Origin: a virus
Taxonomy: Duplodnaviria; Heunggongvirae; Uroviricota; Caudoviricetes; Straboviridae
DNA: 64,000 nucleotides
Reading direction: 5' to 3' (one strand)
Virus record (IMG/VR): IMGVR_UViG_2974587864_000001
Part shown: piece by piece, positions 2,071-37,848 of the stretch
Numbering within the stretch: the stretch's first letter is position 1
How the letters are laid out: every line of letters starts with the position of its first letter
Position numbers and translations under genes: made by a program
The notes under the pieces: model-generated
Seen by the model: the letters and a program-made list of their open reading frames with translations, nothing else
The model's database searches: none
What the model was told of the DNA's origin: nothing

Positions 2071-2355
2071 ATGAAACTTCGTGAAAATACGGCGTATGAC
2101 TCTAAGTTAGACAGAACAATCCACACGTTCAAAGTGATTACGCCAGCGCAATTCAAAGAGCGGTACGGCATTACATTCAACGAATGGAAAGCGGGGTTGT
2201 GTAAAAACGATTACCGATATAAATTAAAATTCCGTGAATGTTATGTTGATGACGATCCTTATGCAGCAGATGTATGTGGTGAAACAGTACCAATTATCGA
2301 GAATTCGCCCGACGCACTAATCCAATCTTGTATAGACGCAGCATATGAAATTTAA
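2071..2355 (+). CDS. hypothetical protein (94 aa)
   Basis: ORF. Confidence 0.5.
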   Translation: MKLRENTAYDSKLDRTIHTFKVITPAQFKERYGITFNEWKAGLCKNDYRYKLKFRECYVDDDPYAADVCGETVPIIENSPDALIQSCIDAAYEI

Positions 2356-2366
2356 AAGAGAAAAAT

Positions 2367-2786
2367 ATGAAAGGTCTTCAAAAGCTGTTTGAATTAACCC
2401 CAAAAATTCGCGAAATCGTCGCTGCATCAACTGAAAAAGAAATCAACGGTAAATTGATGAAACTGTTTACCGAAGAAATCCCAGATTTCGATAACGAATA
2501 CCGTAAAGCGTTCGATGCGTATTCTGTTGATGGTTTCTTTGCATCACCGCAGGTGAATAGCAAACACGAATATCATCGACGATTCTTTGACTGGTCGATC
2601 GTCAATATCGTTCGTCGAACTGACATCGAACCTACAAACCATCAATTGATCTCTATGGATTCTTCTGTATTCTTTATCCAGTACCTTATCACTGGTGGAT
2701 TTAAAGCAGAAGGTATCCCGTTCTGTAACGAAGCTCTGGAAGAAGAGTTCGCAGAAGCGTATAAGTATATCAAAGCAGTTCGTTAA
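2367..2786 (+). CDS. hypothetical protein (139 aa)
   Basis: ORF with AGAGAAAAA-ATG spacing; followed by terminator. Confidence 0.55.
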   Translation: MKGLQKLFELTPKIREIVAASTEKEINGKLMKLFTEEIPDFDNEYRKAFDAYSVDGFFASPQVNSKHEYHRRFFDWSIVNIVRRTDIEPTNHQLISMDSSVFFIQYLITGGFKAEGIPFCNEALEEEFAEAYKYIKAVR

Positions 2787-2791
2787 TCAAC

Positions 2792-2816
2792 AGGCTATCT
2801 TCGGATAGCCTTTTTT
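2792..2816 (+). terminator. rho-independent terminator
   Basis: AGGCTATC-TTCG-GATAGCCT hairpin followed by TTTTTT. Confidence 0.65.
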
Positions 2817-2828
2817 CTGGAGAAGCAT

Positions 2829-3398
2829 ATGCGCTTTTTGAAATACGCAAGCTGGCTTGTACTGGTTCCCCTGGATATTCTTTCGGGTGTTCTGGCTATT
2901 CTGCTGGCTCCTTTCGTGGTTCCGTTCTATAGTGAAGAAACCGGACACTTACCTAAAGGGTTCCGTTGGATGGAAACATTCGATAACCCGATCGATGGTG
3001 ATGGTGGACATATCCGGCGTTGGGCTAACATCCGGTATCACTTAGGCGCTCTGGGTGTGTATGCGCAACGTGTAGGCTGGTTGTGGCGTAACAAGGCGTA
3101 TAACTTCGCTTATAACGTCTTAGGGCGTGAAGCACAATCAGACTTCGCCTGGAAGGGCAACCCGAAAACAGAAGGTGGTTCCGATCCATCACGTCACGGT
3201 TATCTGTTGATGTGGAATGATTCGGCATGGGGGCTTTATGTCTTCAAACCGTGGCTTAAAGTCGGAAAGGTTCAGTTCTGCTTACGCGTGTATTGCGGGT
3301 GGAAACTGAAACAGGAAGTAACTGACCCTAACGGGCTGGATCGTGCAATGCTGGCGTTCCATATCAACCCGTTGCGTTATTATGTCGTAGAAAGGTAA
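2829..3398 (+). CDS. membrane protein, unknown function (189 aa, N-terminal TM helix)
   Basis: ORF with GGAGAAG RBS; hydrophobic N-terminus [25 protein letters not shown]. Confidence 0.55.
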
Positions 3399-3402
3399 TA
3401 CA

Positions 3403-3765
3403 ATGAAAGCATATCAGATTTTAGAAGGTTTACACACTGGTACAATCTACCTGGAAGAAGGTAATGATGTTCGTGTGGTGGTATCCAAAACCCTCGAAAT
3501 GGATTCAGTGATCGGTAAAGCTCGCGTTGCTCCATTCGCAAAACGTGAAGTCGATATTGAATTTCAACCCACTGTTAAAGTGGAAGGTGGACAACACTTA
3601 AACGTAAACGTGTTGCGCCGTGAAACTCTGGAAGATGCTGTGAAGCATCCAGAAAAATACCCGCAGTTAACGATCCGTGTGTCCGGCTATGCAGTGCGTT
3701 TCAATTCACTGACTCCCGAACAACAGCGCGACGTTATCGCCCGAACCTTTACAGAGAGTCTATAA
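3403..3765 (+). CDS. grcA: autonomous glycyl radical cofactor (GrcA/YfiD-like; T4 Y06I-like)
   Basis: C-terminal ~60 aa ([61 protein letters not shown]) matches the glycyl-radical domain of E. coli GrcA/PflB C-terminus essentially residue for residue (from memory). Confidence 0.85.
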
Positions 3766-4046
3766 TGGCGATTGAAGACGTACAGGGCTATAAGCCCCAC
3801 TCGAAAGAAAAGATCGACAAAGTAAACCGCATCAAGGCCGCAGAAGTTGCCCTGGGCGAAATCTTCAAAGAACTGGATGAAGAGTATTCAAGTGATTATG
3901 CGGTATCCGATACCGATTCGTTCACTACAGAAGAACTCGATGCGATGCTTGAACGTATCCATCAAATCCAAAAGGCGAAAGACCGACTGAAAGAAGCCTC
4001 TATGTGGGCGTGTCGTGCGGTGTTCCAGCCAGAAGAAAAGTATTAA
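3765..4046 (+). CDS. hypothetical protein (93 aa)
   Basis: ORF, ATGA-type overlap with grcA-like gene. Confidence 0.5.
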   Translation: MAIEDVQGYKPHSKEKIDKVNRIKAAEVALGEIFKELDEEYSSDYAVSDTDSFTTEELDAMLERIHQIQKAKDRLKEASMWACRAVFQPEEKY

Positions 4047-4053
4047 AAATCAA

Positions 4054-4082
4054 GCCGTTGCCGAAAGGTAGCGGCTTTTTTC
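4054..4082 (+). terminator. rho-independent terminator (imperfect hairpin + T-run)
   Basis: GCCGTTGCC-GAAAG-GTAGCGGC followed by TTTTTT. Confidence 0.5.
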
Positions 4083-4117
4083 GTTTTTATGCAAAATAAT
4101 GCTTGCACTGAATCGTG

Positions 4118-4168
4118 AGTGTGGTAAAGTACACACATCGAAACGAAACAGAGAAAAGGAACGAGAAA
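4118..4168 (+). promoter_or_regulatory. promoter/leader cassette: extended -10-like TGGTAAAGT followed by conserved leader ACACACATCGAAACGAAACAGAG
   Basis: same 5' leader recurs at >=8 other gene starts in the window; TGCTT (MotA-box-like) at 4101-4105. Confidence 0.4.
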
Positions 4169-4369
4169 ATGATTAAATTAAACCCAATCGACGCAGCAAA
4201 ACATTTCGTAGTAGTTGATAATGGTGTTGTGGTTGCAGAAGTTAAGGAAATCGCTTTCTCTGACCCAGACGCGGAAATGAAAAGAATGGGCTACTCTTAC
4301 CGGATCGAGCACAAAAACGGTGAAGTAGAATACGCCGACGATATCTCTGACGTTCAGGCGAAATTCTAA
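4169..4369 (+). CDS. hypothetical protein (66 aa)
   Basis: ATG 4169 preceded by AAGGAACGAG RBS inside conserved leader; track ORF start 4115 lies inside leader and is rejected. Confidence 0.55.
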   Translation: MIKLNPIDAAKHFVVVDNGVVVAEVKEIAFSDPDAEMKRMGYSYRIEHKNGEVEYADDISDVQAKF

Positions 4370-4375
4370 AAAGTT

Positions 4376-4405
4376 GTTGACCTAATCTGGGGGCTGTGAG
4401 AATAT
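4376..4405 (+). promoter_or_regulatory. sigma70-type early promoter TTGACC-N17-GAATAT with IR GGGGCT/AGCCCC bracketing the -10
   Basis: same architecture (IR-gtga-[-10]-IR) as promoter at 138; followed by shortened leader CCATCGAAACGAAACTGAGG. Confidence 0.4.
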
Positions 4406-4437
4406 AGCCCCATCGAAACGAAACTGAGGATGACATT

Positions 4438-4728
4438 ATGAAAACTTACAACATGAAAGAACTGGTTTGCTTCAACACTCGTCGTGAAGCCCGTGCGTAT
4501 GTTCTGGCTGCTGGTAAAAATACCTCTGCTGTAATCGACCTGGGTACTGATAAAGATGTTGGCGCACGTTGGGCTGCTGTTGTGGTTATCGCTGCTCCTG
4601 TGACTCCTGTTAAAACTCTGGTTCTGGGTGCGCGTAAAGCCGAAACTCTGAAAACCAGCACTTGCAATAACAGAGGTGTTCATAATGTCACCGTCATCAA
4701 AAAACGTAGCTTTGGTTTGAGGGCTTAA
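4438..4728 (+). CDS. hypothetical protein (96 aa)
   Basis: ORF with GAGGATGACATT-ATG. Confidence 0.55.
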   Translation: MKTYNMKELVCFNTRREARAYVLAAGKNTSAVIDLGTDKDVGARWAAVVVIAAPVTPVKTLVLGARKAETLKTSTCNNRGVHNVTVIKKRSFGLRA

Positions 4729-4731
4729 CCA

Positions 4732-4962
4732 ATGAGTACCAAAGAATTAGAACAGAAAGTAATGGGGTTCATGAGTAACAGCGAAGATCGCTATGCAAAA
4801 CACCTCATTGTCGAACTGATCACCGCGTTACGTCGCCGCGACAAAGAGATCGAAGAACTTAAAAATGCATCGGTTCAGGTTGTCTATAAAGATCGCGAGC
4901 GTAGTAGCTGGGAAAAAGAATGGGATGCAAACCCCCAAGACCGCCACCTTTTCGGGAAATAA
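4732..4962 (+). CDS. hypothetical protein (76 aa)
   Basis: ORF. Confidence 0.5.
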   Translation: MSTKELEQKVMGFMSNSEDRYAKHLIVELITALRRRDKEIEELKNASVQVVYKDRERSSWEKEWDANPQDRHLFGK

Positions 4963-4964
4963 TC

Positions 4965-5192
4965 ATGAGTTCCATTAACACAGAAAAAGATTTTGTGATG
5001 TTTGTTGGGGTACAGACTGTAAAGAAAGATATCTTCGGTAAACTGTATCTGTCAAACGACGATCGCAACCCCGCATCATTCGAAACCGATGAAGATGCAT
5101 ATATCGCGAAGAACAACAGCGATAACGAAGACATTCGCCAGTATGCGCGGATCTATAACCGTGAAGTAACAACCCGTCTGGAGAGAGCATGA
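4965..5192 (+). CDS. hypothetical protein (75 aa)
   Basis: ATG 4965 right after upstream stop (track start 4920 overlaps upstream gene in another frame). Confidence 0.45.
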   Translation: MSSINTEKDFVMFVGVQTVKKDIFGKLYLSNDDRNPASFETDEDAYIAKNNSDNEDIRQYARIYNREVTTRLERA

Positions 5193-5440
5193 TGCGAGAA
5201 GGTATTGAAGTAAGAACGTTCCAGTTCGAAATGCGTCGTATCCCAGAAGCATCAATGAATCTCATTCGAGAACACAACGTGAAAATCGTAGAAATTGATG
5301 CATACGCGGGTACTGATCTTTATAATGATGCGAAGATTGACAGCATTGATTTAGACCTTGAGGGTGATATCGGGGATCTGAATAAGCTGGCTATTGCATT
5401 GAATGCAGAAACCAACAAATACGGGTATACAATCAAATGA
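5189..5440 (+). CDS. hypothetical protein (83 aa)
   Basis: ORF, ATGA overlap. Confidence 0.5.
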   Translation: MMREGIEVRTFQFEMRRIPEASMNLIREHNVKIVEIDAYAGTDLYNDAKIDSIDLDLEGDIGDLNKLAIALNAETNKYGYTIK

Positions 5441-33201: not shown

Positions 33202-33302
33202 TTCTCTACGTGCTTACGGATCAACAATAGATCCGTTCCTGTATATATTTATAGCAAAAAAGGGGCGAATCGCCCCTTATGTAAAATTAGTCTAAAAATA
33301 CA

Positions 33303-33695
33303 TCAAGTTATCTCATACCAGCATAAGCTACGCTCAAAAGCGCGGATCTTATTTGCGTTCTCGATATTTTCATCCCATCCAATCACGCCAGCTTTCATCC
33401 GGCGTAACTCCTGACGCATTTTAGCGCGTACTTTCGAATCAATCTTTTTGACTGCGATCGAAAGCATCGCGGAGATATCACCATGAGCTTTGTTACCGTC
33501 ACGATTCAGGTTTTTATCGAATCGGATATATGCACAACCTGATTTGTGTTTCCAGTTGGTTGTGTACCAACGCAAACCATCAGGGCTTTCTCCGTGCTGT
33601 GCATAATACTGTGAAAATGCTTTTGTCTCTTCGATTTGTTCGATAGAGGACTTATCACGGACTGGAACATATTTCTTACGGTAAGTACGGCTCAT
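33303..33695 (-). CDS. hypothetical basic protein (130 aa)
   Basis: ORF. Confidence 0.5.
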   Translation of the reverse strand: MSRTYRKKYVPVRDKSSIEQIEETKAFSQYYAQHGESPDGLRWYTTNWKHKSGCAYIRFDKNLNRDGNKAHGDISAMLSIAVKKIDSKVRAKMRQELRRMKAGVIGWDENIENANKIRAFERSLCWYEIT

Positions 33696-33725: not shown

Positions 33726-34310
33726 TTAACAGTTCAGACCAACATTATCAAGAAGTTTTTCGTGATAATGTTTGCGACAGAGCGAAACGTATTTGTCTTC
33801 GGCTCCGATCTCAACCTGCGCCCCTTCGGTTACGAAGTTGCCTTGTGCGTCGATACGTGCAACCGTAGTTGCTTTACGCCCACAGTGACACATTCCCCGC
33901 AGTTCTCGGATCTCGTCTGCCCAGGCCAGCAACCAGTAAGAACCCTCGAACAGATTCAACTGGAAATCAGTACGCAGACCGTAAGCCATTACAGGGATTT
34001 CGAGTTCATCGACAACGCGACATAGATCGAAAACGTTTTTCTTCGAAAGGAATTGCGCCTCGTCAACGAAGATGCAAGCAATTTTATTCCGGCGCTGAAT
34101 GTCCCAGAACAGATCCATATCAGGCGCAATCAATTCACACTTTTCGTTCAGCCCGATACGCGAACTCACTGTGTTTGATGTGCGGGTGTCGATTGCTGGC
34201 TTATAGATTACAACACGCATACCGCGTTCTTTGTAATTGTGTGCGTCCGTCAACAGTCGCGCACTCTTTCCAGCGTTCATTGATGCATAGTGATAATACA
34301 GTTTAGCCAA
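33726..34310 (-). CDS. tk: thymidine kinase
   Basis: LAKLYYHYASMNAGKS...VDEAQFL...YGLRTDF...CHCGRKAT parallels E. coli Tdk over the whole length; probable TTG start at 34310 aligned to Tdk N-terminus. Confidence 0.85.
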   Translation of the reverse strand: MAKLYYHYASMNAGKSARLLTDAHNYKERGMRVVIYKPAIDTRTSNTVSSRIGLNEKCELIAPDMDLFWDIQRRNKIACIFVDEAQFLSKKNVFDLCRVVDELEIPVMAYGLRTDFQLNLFEGSYWLLAWADEIRELRGMCHCGRKATTVARIDAQGNFVTEGAQVEIGAEDKYVSLCRKHYHEKLLDNVGLNC

Positions 34311-34563
34311 TTGTAAACCATCCGTTACCCATGAGTTTTTTGTTACGTCGCGCAAGATGCTCTTTGATTTCTGGCATCTGGATCGCAATATCATACTCTT
34401 CTTTCGTCATAGTATGATTTGCGCAACCCATACACCCGCACACCTGCGCGTTACACCAACGGAGTGTTCCGTATGTCGCAATCACCTTCATTGCTTTAGC
34501 TTTGATTTTGTCAGTCATGATTATAACCGCCCATTTCGCTATCTTGTGCTTTATGGATATCAA
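34303..34563 (-). CDS. small Cys-rich protein (CNAQVCGCMGCANH)
   Basis: ORF; start uncertain (possibly ATG 34518). Confidence 0.45.
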   Translation of the reverse strand: MISIKHKIAKWAVIIMTDKIKAKAMKVIATYGTLRWCNAQVCGCMGCANHTMTKEEYDIAIQMPEIKEHLARRNKKLMGNGWFTIG

Positions 34564-34798
34564 GATACCACATATTGATTTTGCTTTTTAGTTCGCCCAT
34601 TTCTTTATCCAGCCCATCATCAACAAGACAGAGAATGTCAACCACCGTTTTACGTTGGGTGATGTTGATTTTGTTTGCTTTCATGGACTGCGCCAGCGCT
34701 TCACAGGTTTTCACCAGTGCGGCGCGTTGCCCTTTGATTGTGGCGATCCGCTTGTTCGCTTTCTTGATCGCCCGACCTGCTTTGATAGGATCAATCAT
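34511..34798 (-). CDS. hypothetical protein (95 aa)
   Basis: ORF. Confidence 0.5.
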   Translation of the reverse strand: MIDPIKAGRAIKKANKRIATIKGQRAALVKTCEALAQSMKANKINITQRKTVVDILCLVDDGLDKEMGELKSKINMWYLDIHKAQDSEMGGYNHD

Positions 34799-35003
34799 GA
34801 TTAGCTCTCTCCACTGCTACCGCATCACGAACAGCATCTTCGATTTCATTTTCAACGAAATCCAGGATATCCGCTGTAATGTCGTCGATACAGGATTGAT
34901 TATAGTTGCGTGAATCAGGATCATCATCTTCGGCATAATCCTGATACGCTTCGCCCAGTTGTTTCAGCTTGTGTTTTAACAGCTTTTGTTCTTGCGGTCT
35001 CAT
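34791..35003 (-). CDS. hypothetical acidic protein (70 aa)
   Basis: ORF. Confidence 0.45.
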   Translation of the reverse strand: MRPQEQKLLKHKLKQLGEAYQDYAEDDDPDSRNYNQSCIDDITADILDFVENEIEDAVRDAVAVERANHD

Positions 35004-35500
35004 GATAAATCCGCCTTACGTGGATCAACCGATGGATCGAAGTGAACAACGATGATCGGGTAATCTCCCGTACACTCGTCAATAATAGCGCTAATACGCA
35101 GCCAATCGCCCCCAGCAAGCCCCGCACCGATAAGAGGGGTAACGATAGGCAATTTTTCAGGAAACGCACTGGCGCGTTCTACGGCGCTCACAAAGCATGA
35201 CCGGATTGCATCATAATCCACTTGTGGGCCAGTACCCCAGAATTTAAACTGAGTGTAGGCATTGAAGACAATCTGACCTTCTTCCGTCATGTAGATGGAG
35301 TTAGTGCCTAACTTACGCTGATCGCCTTTCATCGTCAGCGCATCAATTTTGAACGCACCAGGGATTTTGTGCTTCACTTCTTTAGCAATACCCGCGCCCA
35401 TGTTGCAATAGCAGTTACACCCGTGAATCAAGTGTACTTTTCGTTTCAGGAACAACTCTACAGCGTTCCCTTTGATTTCTTTAATAATCATTTTCATCAC
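35000..35500 (-). CDS. macro-domain protein (ADP-ribose binding / ADP-ribosyl hydrolase family)
   Basis: HGCNCYCNMGAGIAKE ... TPLIGAGLAGGDW match macro-domain ligand-binding loops. Confidence 0.7.
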   Translation of the reverse strand: MMKMIIKEIKGNAVELFLKRKVHLIHGCNCYCNMGAGIAKEVKHKIPGAFKIDALTMKGDQRKLGTNSIYMTEEGQIVFNAYTQFKFWGTGPQVDYDAIRSCFVSAVERASAFPEKLPIVTPLIGAGLAGGDWLRISAIIDECTGDYPIIVVHFDPSVDPRKADLS

Positions 35501-35579
35501 CTGTATAGTGGCGGTAAGCCAGCACAGCCAGCCCCGCGATCACAACAATAACACACATTAAGATATAACCTGTGTTCAT
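35481..35579 (-). CDS. tiny membrane protein (32 aa)
   Basis: MNTGYILMCVIVVIAGLAVLAYRHYTGDENDY; ATGA overlap with next small ORF and overlaps macro start. Confidence 0.3.
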   Translation of the reverse strand: MNTGYILMCVIVVIAGLAVLAYRHYTGDENDY

Positions 35580-35722
35580 TTAAATTCGTCGTCCCATCTT
35601 TGCCACGCTTCCAACTCGTCATCATATACAGGGAACGAGCTTTCGTTTGGCTTTTTAACGTAATACCAGATAATGATTGCAGCAGCAATCACACACCCGT
35701 AAAAGATTACTAATCCCATCAT
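35576..35722 (-). CDS. small membrane protein (48 aa)
   Basis: MMGLVIFYGCVIAAAIIIWYYVKKP...; replaces spurious track ORF 35497..35688. Confidence 0.3.
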   Translation of the reverse strand: MMGLVIFYGCVIAAAIIIWYYVKKPNESSFPVYDDELEAWQRWDDEFK

Positions 35723-36042
35723 CAGTATAATCCTATGCCAGCAACATATTCATCAACCAGGTAAGTACGGAGTTTTTCACAACGTTCCTTATTTGGCGCA
35801 TTGGTACAGAGGTTCATCATTGGTTCAGACTGTAAAAACTCATGCAGTTTAACCAACTTCTGACGCTTGAAGAGGTGCGCGTTTTCTTCGCCCCATACAT
35901 AAGCCGCGTCCAGTTGTTCAGCGATTACCTGTTCACATACCGCAACGTCTTTAATGTCGCGATGGTTGCAGAGTTCAGCCAGTCGATCATCAGCATGTGC
36001 AAAGCCAGCAAACAGAGTGAGCAACAGCGCAAGTTTTTTCAT
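35722..36042 (-). CDS. small secreted protein (signal peptide ...FAGFAHA-DDR)
   Basis: MKKLALLLTLFAGFAHA signal peptide; 6 Cys; same HADDR junction as 32911..33201 product. Confidence 0.5.
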   Translation of the reverse strand: MKKLALLLTLFAGFAHADDRLAELCNHRDIKDVAVCEQVIAEQLDAAYVWGEENAHLFKRQKLVKLHEFLQSEPMMNLCTNAPNKERCEKLRTYLVDEYVAGIGLY

Positions 36043-36051
36043 CGTTTTACC

Positions 36052-36663
36052 TTAGTATGAATCTTCTTCGATAGGGGTATAATAATGGGTTTCGCAGATA
36101 TACGCAAGCACTGATCGCAAACTATCGCTTTCAAATTCCGGCTTTTGATTGCGTTTCAGGCTCCAGCCAGTGAAACACATCCAGCGTTCTTCCGCAATAT
36201 CAAAGGCTAGCCAATATGTGCTGAACTGTGAACATGTATGTTCGAAGATATCGAACAGCAATTTACCGCCGATCGGCTTCACATATGGCTTCACGCGTTG
36301 AAGCGATTTCAGGACTGTTTCGAGGTTACTGCGATCCTCATTCATCGCGATACGAAGAATATGCTGATTGGTTTCTGGGTTGTATCCATCAATCCCCAAA
36401 CCCATATCCTGGAAGAACTTAGTCGCATCACGGAAAATTTCATGTCCGCTGTTCGGTGAATTGATGTAAAACTCCATACGTTGTTTTGGAGTCATCGCAC
36501 GGACGCGGGACGCGGTAGCCTTGTCGATCTCTTCTTTGATCTCCTGACGGCCTTTCAGTAACCCGTTCAGCTTTTCCTGATAGGGTTTCATTACCGCCCT
36601 GATCTCGTCGATACGTTCATCAACGATCGCTAACTGCTGTTCCGGTGTCAGTTTAGTTTCCAT
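36052..36663 (-). CDS. hypothetical protein (203 aa)
   Basis: ORF. Confidence 0.5.
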   Translation of the reverse strand: METKLTPEQQLAIVDERIDEIRAVMKPYQEKLNGLLKGRQEIKEEIDKATASRVRAMTPKQRMEFYINSPNSGHEIFRDATKFFQDMGLGIDGYNPETNQHILRIAMNEDRSNLETVLKSLQRVKPYVKPIGGKLLFDIFEHTCSQFSTYWLAFDIAEERWMCFTGWSLKRNQKPEFESDSLRSVLAYICETHYYTPIEEDSY

Positions 36664-36664
36664 G

Positions 36665-37069
36665 TTAAGCCCCTACGCGCACAAAGCGATCTTCAATTGC
36701 ATCATTAACACATTCGTAAATGCTAACGTCATTCGGGACGTGCTTACGAATACCCACTTTCACGATATCCATGATCTCTTTGTTGCTACCCCACACGTTC
36801 AGGTTGAAGTAAACACCGCCGCTATGAATTGTGTTGTTGCCAACATCAAGATACGTATCTTGACTTTCGCAGATAAACAGTTTGCGTTTTTCTTCTCCAT
36901 ATGCAAAGTAGATACTGAACGATTCCATACGATGACGATCGACCGTGATGGTTTCCACTTTAACCTTTGGATCTTTGTTCAGTTCATCTAACACACCCTG
37001 AATGATGTGCAGCATGTTCGGCTTGATGATAGTCGGGTGACTGGTAATAACTCGATGTGATGTGCTCAT
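36665..37069 (-). CDS. hypothetical protein (134 aa)
   Basis: ORF. Confidence 0.5.
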   Translation of the reverse strand: MSTSHRVITSHPTIIKPNMLHIIQGVLDELNKDPKVKVETITVDRHRMESFSIYFAYGEEKRKLFICESQDTYLDVGNNTIHSGGVYFNLNVWGSNKEIMDIVKVGIRKHVPNDVSIYECVNDAIEDRFVRVGA

Positions 37070-37102
37070 AATTTAATCCTCAATAGTTGGTACACACATA
37101 AT

Positions 37103-37135
37103 AAAAAAGCCCTTGCGAAATTGCAAGGGCTTTTT
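37103..37135. terminator. bidirectional rho-independent terminator
   Basis: AAAAAAGCCCTTGCGAAATTGCAAGGGCTTTTT. Confidence 0.65.
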
Positions 37136-37136
37136 A

Positions 37137-37784
37137 TCAGATAATGCGTTTTTCTTCTAACAGCTTCGCGGTATGGTTAACCATGCGAGCATAATCACGG
37201 GCTTCTTTCTTTGAATACTTGAATCCCGCGTTGTAACTCGCCAGCGCCTTTTTCAAGTCGCCTTTGTGGTAATCAAGCCAGTATTCCAGTTCGTGAAGTG
37301 CATACTTGGAACCACCCCGAAGGGTTTCGAGCTTATTGATTACTACGCGTTTGGAATATGATTTATCCATTCGTGCGGACGCGCTACGGGCTGTTACTTG
37401 AAAACAACCATAAGCATGATGATTCTTTTTGCCTTTCCCTACGTTCTCACATGCGCGAGACTCGATCCAGGCAATAGCCGCTAAATGATATCCCAAACGT
37501 TTCGATGTTTCCGATTCAACTGGCTTTGCAGTTTTGCGATCGTACTCATTTCCGATCCTGAAAGCGTACTCCAAAACCTTTTTCTGCTTTGGTGTAATAT
37601 CGTCCAATTCCTTAACATAACTGGGGGCATTGGCTGGCGCTTTCTTCATTACTGTTGCTTGTTGTAGCGGTAAAGTTGACTTCACAGAAGGGAGTGTTTG
37701 GATAAACTCTCCTAACGGATCGGTCGCCGCGTTGCCAGAAAAAGAGCATAAGAAAATGCTGGCAGCAAAGATAATTTTCTTCAT
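37137..37784 (-). CDS. secreted soluble lytic transglycosylase (SLT domain) with signal peptide
   Basis: MKKIIFAASIFLCSFSGNA signal peptide; SLT motifs AIAWIESR, GCFQV, ALASYNAG. Confidence 0.65.
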   Translation of the reverse strand: MKKIIFAASIFLCSFSGNAATDPLGEFIQTLPSVKSTLPLQQATVMKKAPANAPSYVKELDDITPKQKKVLEYAFRIGNEYDRKTAKPVESETSKRLGYHLAAIAWIESRACENVGKGKKNHHAYGCFQVTARSASARMDKSYSKRVVINKLETLRGGSKYALHELEYWLDYHKGDLKKALASYNAGFKYSKKEARDYARMVNHTAKLLEEKRII

Positions 37785-37848
37785 TGTAATACCTATTTGT
37801 AACAAGAGAGGGCTATGATACCCTCGTCTTATTATTTATGCAACCATT

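Follow-up and report, generated by a model that had tools for sequence, protein, structure and literature searches.

A putative anti-DarTG2 macrodomain gene and its small membrane-peptide neighbours in a Pseudotevenvirus genome

The locus

The window analysed here is a stretch of 64,000 nucleotides (nt) from a virus of the Straboviridae (IMG/VR record IMGVR_UViG_2974587864_000001), and our subject is a macrodomain gene within it, together with the two tiny open reading frames (ORFs) that directly precede this gene. The window sequence matches that of Cronobacter phage vB_CsaM_leE, a T4-like member of Pseudotevenvirus (Straboviridae), at 100% identity; adding 48464 to a window position converts it to KX443552 numbering. 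All features of the locus are on the minus strand, inside a long leftward gene block. The macrodomain gene (macro gene from here on) occupies 35000..35491. The ORF called orf32, which would encode 32 amino acids (aa), lies at 35481..35579, and orf48, of 47-48 aa, at 35576..35722. Read 5' to 3' on the minus strand, the order is vs homologue, orf48, orf32, macro gene, a 70-aa ORF, two more small ORFs and the thymidine kinase gene tk.

Start, family and fold of the macro gene

The longest ORF of the macro gene, 35000..35500, opens with a GTG at 35500, and two other starts are available, ATG 35497 (the RefSeq choice) and ATG 35491. The last of these is the most likely start, for a predicted protein of 163 aa, because homologues begin MIIKE or MIVKY, because one sister-phage annotation uses the same start, and because the spacing of a Shine-Dalgarno (SD)-like AGGTGAT suits this ATG only. 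This motif, read in the sequence at 35496..35502 (35502..35496 in the direction of the gene), is inside the orf32 coding sequence, and its GG core lies 8 nt 5' of ATG 35491, too near to ATG 35497 and GTG 35500. The overlap of the macro start with orf32 measures 20 nt from GTG 35500, 17 nt from ATG 35497 and 11 nt from ATG 35491. The original prediction had reported this overlap and placed the macro gene at 35000-35500; the overlap stands, and the start moves to ATG 35491 on account of the homologues and the SD spacing.

In terms of family, the macro ORF matches Pfam Macro (PF01661) above threshold (28.7 bits, cut-off 22), belongs to PHROG 335 (2.9e-60), which is labelled 'phosphatase', and is matched by the PADLOC DarG model at 4.7e-8. 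With tblastn, macro homologues were found in 2,724 of 50,697 phage records, at one place per record (single copy), and those of T4-like phages are annotated variously as tk.4, phosphatase, macro domain or Poa1p-like. The protein contains both HGCNCYCNMGAGIAKE and GAGLAGGDW, in columns that are invariant or nearly so in a family alignment of 57 sequences.

An AlphaFold (AF2) model built from 57 homologues has a predicted local distance difference test (pLDDT) of 92 and a predicted template modelling score (pTM) of 0.89. Its top Foldseek matches in the PDB are TARG1, Poa1p, DarG, BT1257 and SCO6735, all of the ALC1-like class; MacroD-type and viral macrodomains rank below this group. That a macrodomain protein is encoded at this place, as first proposed from the letters of the DNA, is thus borne out by the Pfam score, the model and its structural matches. 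An assignment to MacroD or Af1521 was ruled out, as such structures rank under the ALC1-like group. Among solved structures, SCO6735 and BT1257 are closest in sequence, and the hhalign E-values are 3.9e-13 for SCO6735 (28% identity), 1.3e-11 for DarG and 1.2e-8 for TARG1.

In the RB43 reference (NC_007023), the macro gene (1736-2228; coordinates of other phages are given in the numbering of the extracted loci) is split into pieces of 30 and 132 aa by a frameshift after HLIHG. The gene is intact in the RB43-GVA isolate (HE858210, 1136-1624), and the small ORFs upstream are intact in both. The split is either a sequencing error or a loss in a laboratory stock.

Catalytic residues and subclass

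The sequences of TARG1 and of M. tuberculosis DarG were confirmed against the PDB and then aligned to the macro protein (hhalign, MAFFT). At the position of DarG K80 and TARG1 K84 the macro protein has a Gln, in a NAYTQ motif that stands opposite FPTK in DarG, LITK in TARG1 and MIGQ in SCO6735. This Gln is invariant in 57/57 family members and in every Tk.4 orthologue read. Human TARG1/OARD1 (PDB 4J5S) is the top structural match, with a template modelling score of about 0.7-0.8 and similar MGAGIA and IGxGL loops, but its Lys84/Asp125 dyad is absent, the two positions being Gln and Ala in the macro protein.

The HGCN of the macro protein aligns to HVCN of SCO6735 (His24/Asn27). Among the 57 homologues the N is invariant and the H at least 90% conserved, and the two phosphate-binding loops (MGAGIA and IGAGLAGGDW) vary little or not at all. 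The resemblance to Streptomyces coelicolor SCO6735 (PDB 5E3B) and Bacteroides BT1257 (2AFC/2FG1) lies in the Gln at the catalytic-Lys position, the His plus Asn, and the IGxGLAGGxW loop. Unlike the macro protein, these two are bacterial housekeeping proteins or orphan antitoxins, and the identity is about 25-28%.

In the case of SCO6735, the mutation Q85A abolishes activity, N27S nearly does so, and His24 is also needed (PMC9411070). The enzyme efficiently cleaves thymidine-linked ADP-ribosylated DNA and rescues cells from DarT, and it de-ADP-ribosylates proteins too (PMC9411070).

The original prediction had tied an anti-ADP-ribosylation role to the presence of the catalytic loop residues. 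The Lys of DarG and TARG1 is formally lost; this loss is uninformative on activity because the replacing Gln is a functional residue in SCO6735. The role itself gains support from the ADP-ribose loops and from the His, Asn and Gln essential in SCO6735, all of them invariant or nearly so. Of the macro subclasses then named as possible, the aligned residues and the model assign the protein to the ALC1-like/TARG1 class, SCO6735 (Gln) type, and not to MacroD or Af1521. It is probably active as an ADP-ribose-removing enzyme against ADP-ribosylation.

Relation to T4 Tk.4, DarG and PhiKZ gp104

Over its full length, the macro protein shares 36% identity with T4 Tk.4 (E 4e-30, residues 3-155 against 1-153). 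The two proteins are alike in their position between vs and tk, in size, in being of a single domain, and in the HGCNC, YTQ and IGAG-x-GG-W motifs. The gene order regB, vs.1, vs, a slot of varying content, tk.4, small ORFs and tk is kept in T4, JSE, CC31, 44RR2.8t, Cronus, Kp122, RB43 and the window phage, with the vs homologue as the upstream anchor of this synteny and tk as the downstream one. In T4, vs abuts tk.4, which is followed by tk.3, tk.2, tk.1 and tk. Unlike T4, the window phage has two tiny membrane-peptide genes between vs and the macro gene; genus and host also differ, and the proteins have diverged substantially. By homology and gene order, the macro gene is taken as the Pseudotevenvirus orthologue of T4 tk.4 (adfM).

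A T4 transposon library grown on a DarTG2 host gave tk.4 as the single significant match, a clean deletion of tk.4 makes T4 sensitive to DarTG2, and the gene was named adfM (bioRxiv 10.1101/2025.11.20.689424). Among the functions that the original prediction had listed, the removal of host ADP-ribosyltransferase marks fits best, given that the T4 orthologue is required for DarTG2 resistance (bioRxiv 10.1101/2025.11.20.689424).

With DarG (PDB 5M3E, 5M3I, 7OMU) the macro protein has in common the macrodomain fold, the ALC1-like class and the presumed substrate. As for the NCBIfam DarG equivalog, the score is 24.1 bits against a cut-off of 250, and the match covers only positions 11-155 of a 338-position model. 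The protein is not a DarG: Gln stands in place of Lys80, and there is neither a C-terminal DarT-binding domain nor an adjacent darT.

Another free-standing phage macrodomain, PhiKZ gp104 (AdfM), has been biochemically shown to remove DarT2 ADP-ribose from DNA, and it is imported into the phage nucleus (PMC13309987). Unlike the macro protein, which is of the Gln type (YTQF), gp104 is of the Lys type (FPTKDNW, as in DarG), and the two are 25% identical. T4-like phages, unlike PhiKZ, have no phage nucleus.

A proposed role against DarTG2

The reading that we favour, and hold to be reasonably probable, is that 35000..35491 is the gene of a free-standing macrodomain protein of about 160 aa, an ADP-ribosylglycohydrolase which acts against DarTG2, and that the small peptides have no specific tie to it. 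Early in infection, the enzyme would bind the ADP-ribose that host DarT2 puts on thymidines of single-stranded phage DNA. It would then hydrolyse the bond between base and ribose, and replication would go on despite DarTG2. Catalysis would probably resemble that of SCO6735, with Gln81 (Gln83 in RefSeq numbering), held by Asn26, positioning the distal ribose, and would involve no catalytic Lys. Like SCO6735, the enzyme may in addition remove ADP-ribose from proteins. The orf48 and orf32 peptides would be inner-membrane peptides with cytoplasmic acidic tails, placed in the variable slot after vs, and vs, the peptides, the macro gene and tk would be packed with the overlapping start and stop codons that are usual in T4-like phages.

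Several points weigh against this proposal. The evidence that links T4 tk.4 to DarTG2 is a preprint and genetic only (bioRxiv 10.1101/2025.11.20.689424), and the identity to T4 Tk.4 is only 36%. The equivalent of SCO6735 Val25 is an invariant Gly in the macro family; in SCO6735 the backbone of this residue (Val/Ile25) positions the proposed catalytic water, a feature described as SCO6735-specific (PMC9411070). Furthermore, Lys34, a DNA-binding residue of SCO6735, is Ala in the macro protein, and the mobile loop is shorter. Distant macro homologues of Vibrio phages are found within gene pairs of this kind. In Vibrio phage 184E37-2, a 25%-identical macro homologue lies between genes like those for ribose-phosphate pyrophosphokinase (Prs) and nicotinamide phosphoribosyltransferase (Nampt) (neighbourhood at 2166-5107), an arrangement that resembles salvage or reconstitution of nicotinamide adenine dinucleotide (NAD+) and hints at other roles of the fold, and a different one for that sub-lineage. 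As for the peptides, comparative genomics is the basis for denying them a link to the macro gene, and their adjacency to it is conserved within Pseudotevenvirus.

An alternative, which we regard as unlikely, is that the macrodomain mainly reverses ADP-ribosylation of protein or RNA and not of DNA, such as marks made by the phage's own transferases of the Alt/ModA/ModB type or by other host ADP-ribosyltransferase toxins, for instance CmdT-like marks on mRNA. T4-like phages encode ADP-ribosyltransferases. The best fold match is TARG1, and SCO6735, which among characterised proteins is the nearest relative, acts on proteins too (PMC9411070). However, the T4 orthologue has yielded one phenotype only, sensitivity to DarTG2 (bioRxiv 10.1101/2025.11.20.689424), and T-even phages are reported to be sensitive to CmdTAC although they carry tk.4 (PMC11618068). 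Moreover, the Lys/Asp dyad with which TARG1 acts on Glu/Asp-linked protein substrates is absent from the macro protein.

It seems quite improbable that the macrodomain acts on small molecules (ADP-ribose-1''-phosphate, O-acetyl-ADP-ribose or immune signals derived from ADP-ribose) or feeds NAD+ reconstitution. The database labels 'phosphatase' and 'Poa1p_like' would suit such a role, as would the presence of Poa1p among the top fold and sequence matches and the Vibrio phage homologue between its Prs-like and Nampt-like genes. Yet the 'phosphatase' label is motif-based ('contains A1pp phosphatase motif'), and Poa1p, similar in fold, matches in sequence over the N-terminal 44 residues only (7-50). 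A weak ThsA_Macro match, which would also favour such a role, reaches 17.4 bits against a cut-off of 25 and was disregarded as below threshold. The neighbours in the window phage are vs and tk, not NAD genes, and the T4 genetics point to DarT2 (bioRxiv 10.1101/2025.11.20.689424).

Two small membrane peptides

Besides the macro enzyme proposed to act against DarTG2, the locus would encode two small membrane peptides. The tiny hydrophobic ORFs of the original prediction were placed exactly: orf48 and orf32 share the ATGA at 35576-35579, and orf32 runs into the macro start. At its other end, the start codon of orf48 has 1 nt in common with the vs stop codon (TGATG). Each ORF has one strongly hydrophobic stretch (17-residue Kyte-Doolittle maxima of 2.66 for orf48 and 2.93 for orf32), and each product is predicted to pass the membrane once. 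The orf32 sequence is MNTGYILMCVIVVIAGLAVLAYRHYTGDENDY, and in orf48 an N-terminal transmembrane helix is followed by KK and by a conserved tail that is acidic and rich in Trp (DDELEAWQRWDDEFK). With the flanking KK or R as the only guide, the N-terminus would be outside and the acidic tail cytoplasmic.

GenBank/RefSeq records of sister phages already contain annotations for the two small ORFs, which fall into separate PHROGs of unknown function (10683 for orf48, 34526 for orf32). Neither has a significant match to a described family in Pfam, NCBIfam, PADLOC or the PHROGs of known function; a PetG match on orf32 (15.2 bits, threshold 23.7) was disregarded. No wider family of orf48 was found, with one cluster in a search of 5.8 billion proteins and only Pseudotevenvirus loci in a scan of viral contigs.

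We found orf48 in 62 phage records, all Pseudotevenvirus-like. In its own frame, the ratio of nonsynonymous to synonymous differences (pN/pS) is 0.11-0.17, compared to 1.1-2.0 in the two alternative frames (pS 0.65-0.86), and orf48 is a real gene under strong frame-specific purifying selection. In Citrobacter phage IME-CF2, the orf48 homologue (1501-1719) is frameshifted close to the 3' end and extended to 72 aa, which may be a sequencing error or gene decay. The orf32 frame is intact in 45 phage records. Its pN/pS of 0.40, compared to 0.48-0.62 out of frame, rests on 14-16 substitutions and is not frame-specific, and the macro SD and start lie within its 3' end. The coding evidence for orf32 is moderate, and it is probably a gene.

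A different hydrophobic peptide, of 31 aa (MSIGLQFALL...), is encoded at the orf32 position in RB43, RB16, Lw1, CfP1 and IME-CF2, with pN/pS of 0.16-0.24 for most pairs and 0.43 for one. It gives no BLASTP alignment with orf32, and the match of orf32 to a 38-aa peptide of Slopekvirus (E 0.029) is unconvincing. Enterobacter phage vB_EcRAM-01 has three consecutive tiny transmembrane ORFs, of 48, 31 and 32 aa, between vs and the macro gene (1266-1599). Modular gain and loss by recombination is suggested, because this phage carries both of the alternative peptides of the sister clades.

That one or both small ORFs are untranslated chance ORFs in a spacer appears rather doubtful. Such a view could draw on orf32, which has no frame-specific selection signal and whose 3' end must in any case preserve the macro SD and start, and on the missing Pfam and NCBIfam matches. 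Against it stand the strong selection on the orf48 frame, the intact ORFs in all 45-62 carrying records except for the frameshifted orf48 end in IME-CF2, and the constraint on the 31-aa peptide that takes the place of orf32 in sister clades. There is also no non-coding spacer between vs and the macro gene, because the ORFs cover every base. A 63-aa ORF in an alternative frame (35497..35688, minus strand), spanning both tiny ORFs, is spurious, with pN/pS of 1 or more in its frame.

Relation of the peptides to the macro gene

From the overlap of start and stop codons, the original prediction had suggested that translation of the membrane peptides is coupled to that of the macro gene. The sister phage leB is identical to the window over 34500-36700, and the overlap counts were taken from this sister genome. 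In its gene block, 40 of the 81 same-strand junctions overlap, 24 of the 40 by 4 nt. Start/stop overlap is the default packing here and no signal of coupling between peptide and macro gene.

Association across viruses was counted in 79 diverse viral loci with a macro homologue, four of them from Pseudotevenvirus. Outside this genus, a small hydrophobic ORF ends at the macro start in 2/75 loci (2.7%), compared to 4.1% for other large ORFs of the same loci. The four Pseudotevenvirus loci and these two chance-looking cases are all the positives. The junction that is conserved is the one from vs to the peptide, with the 1-nt TGATG overlap in Pseudotevenvirus and Slopekvirus, and not that from the peptide to the macro gene.

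A translational and functional coupling of the peptides to the macrodomain, for instance as membrane anchor or regulator, is on these counts very unlikely. The start/stop overlaps are there, orf32 has no obvious SD of its own and its translation may depend on orf48, a transmembrane peptide directly precedes the macro gene throughout Pseudotevenvirus, and cytoplasmic acidic tails are predicted for both peptides. But such overlaps are ordinary in this gene block, the macro gene has its own strong SD, and in the RB43/RB16/Lw1/CfP1 clade the adjacent peptide is replaced by one without detectable similarity. In Slopekvirus, a soluble 62-aa ORF separates the transmembrane ORFs from the macro gene; T4 and JSE have no peptides at all, yet T4 Tk.4 works. 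With neither enrichment outside the genus nor a conserved junction between peptide and macro gene, the proposed coupling fails, and orf48 and orf32 are best described, from the gene comparisons, as lineage-specific neighbours and not as partners of the macrodomain. It is likewise hardly credible that the peptides, with their acidic Trp-rich tails, are dedicated macrodomain partners in this genus which hold or activate the enzyme at the inner membrane where phage DNA enters, or that they form an unrecognised envelope module with Vs.

The variable slot and the gene neighbourhood

The slot between vs and tk.4 is empty in T4 and JSE, and holds a protein of 130-146 aa with a signal peptide in CC31, Cronus, Kp122 and 44RR2.8t. 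Such secreted slot proteins (1088-1507, 1064-1504, 1091-1507 and 1100-1492) are seen in Karamvirus, Roskildevirus, Jiaodavirus and Biquartavirus. In Slopekvirus the slot (2558-3017) contains transmembrane ORFs and then the soluble 62-aa ORF, and in Pseudotevenvirus two to three tiny transmembrane peptides. To judge by these gene contents, the slot is a variable insertion site across the Straboviridae.

The vs homologue of the window, annotated as valyl-tRNA synthetase modifier, lies at 35722..36042 and encodes 106 aa with a signal-peptide-like N-terminus (PHROG 1256 at 1.1e-21, RefSeq). Every Vs homologue read has a Sec-type signal peptide or a lipobox at its N-terminus and conserved Cys residues; examples are MKKLALLLTLFAGFAHA before DD in the window Vs and MTKILVLCIGLISFSASASA before DT in T4 Vs (4887-5234). 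The annotation as valyl-tRNA synthetase modifier is odd beside these signal peptides, the supposed target being a cytoplasmic enzyme. If the peptides belong to any group, it would be an envelope-directed set after vs, because Vs homologues carry signal peptides or lipoboxes and the slot proteins elsewhere are secreted.

Downstream of the macro gene, a 70-aa acidic ORF (34791..35003; PHROG 12899, annotation) overlaps the macro stop as ATGA, and tk is at 33726..34310 (Pfam TK 2.1e-49, annotation). A 173-bp indel directly downstream of the macro gene adds an annotated 58-aa ORF in EC-F2 (601-777) and about 10 other sister phages, which is absent from leE and leB. In Lw1, the ORF at the indel position (3477-3653) reads MINADKEKLY..., and a similar ORF is found upstream of the macro gene in Slopekvirus. 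Small genes thus shuffle around tk.4, given the downstream position in Lw1 and the upstream one in Slopekvirus.

A consensus scan delimits one unit from the ORF at 36665..37069 through tk and the next ORF, 33303..33695, bounded by a site that resembles both a promoter and a terminator near 37100 and by a terminator-like hairpin near 33270, a span of roughly 3.8 kb. The probable start of the unit is a terminator-like hairpin that overlaps a sigma-70-like promoter match (37098..37135, minus strand), and the probable end is the hairpin at 33260..33278 (minus strand). The scan found no promoter-like site on this strand between vs and the macro gene. These promoter and terminator matches are at or below the background of shuffled sequence and give weak context. 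With this in mind, vs, the small ORFs, the macro gene and tk are probably co-transcribed in an early unit of 12 genes. Just upstream of this leftward unit, a 222-aa protein (37137..37805, minus strand) begins with a hydrophobic leader and contains an SLT lytic transglycosylase domain (Pfam 24.9 bits).

Significance

The macro gene belongs to the already known T4 Tk.4/AdfM group, and the finding is in this respect largely ordinary. In addition, orf48 and orf32 enlarge the catalogue of conserved phage micro-proteins, with nothing that singles them out.

Two groups have given the name AdfM to different proteins (PMC13309987; bioRxiv 10.1101/2025.11.20.689424). On this evidence, one name covers two macrodomain sub-lineages with the same proposed task, the T4 type with Gln (SCO6735 lineage) and the PhiKZ type with Lys (DarG-like).

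Finally, the analysis offers a testable function for a gene annotated as 'hypothetical protein' in T4-like phages of Cronobacter, Enterobacter and Klebsiella. Some of these phages are candidates for therapy or biocontrol, and a counter-defence against DarTG2 would bear on the prediction of their host range.

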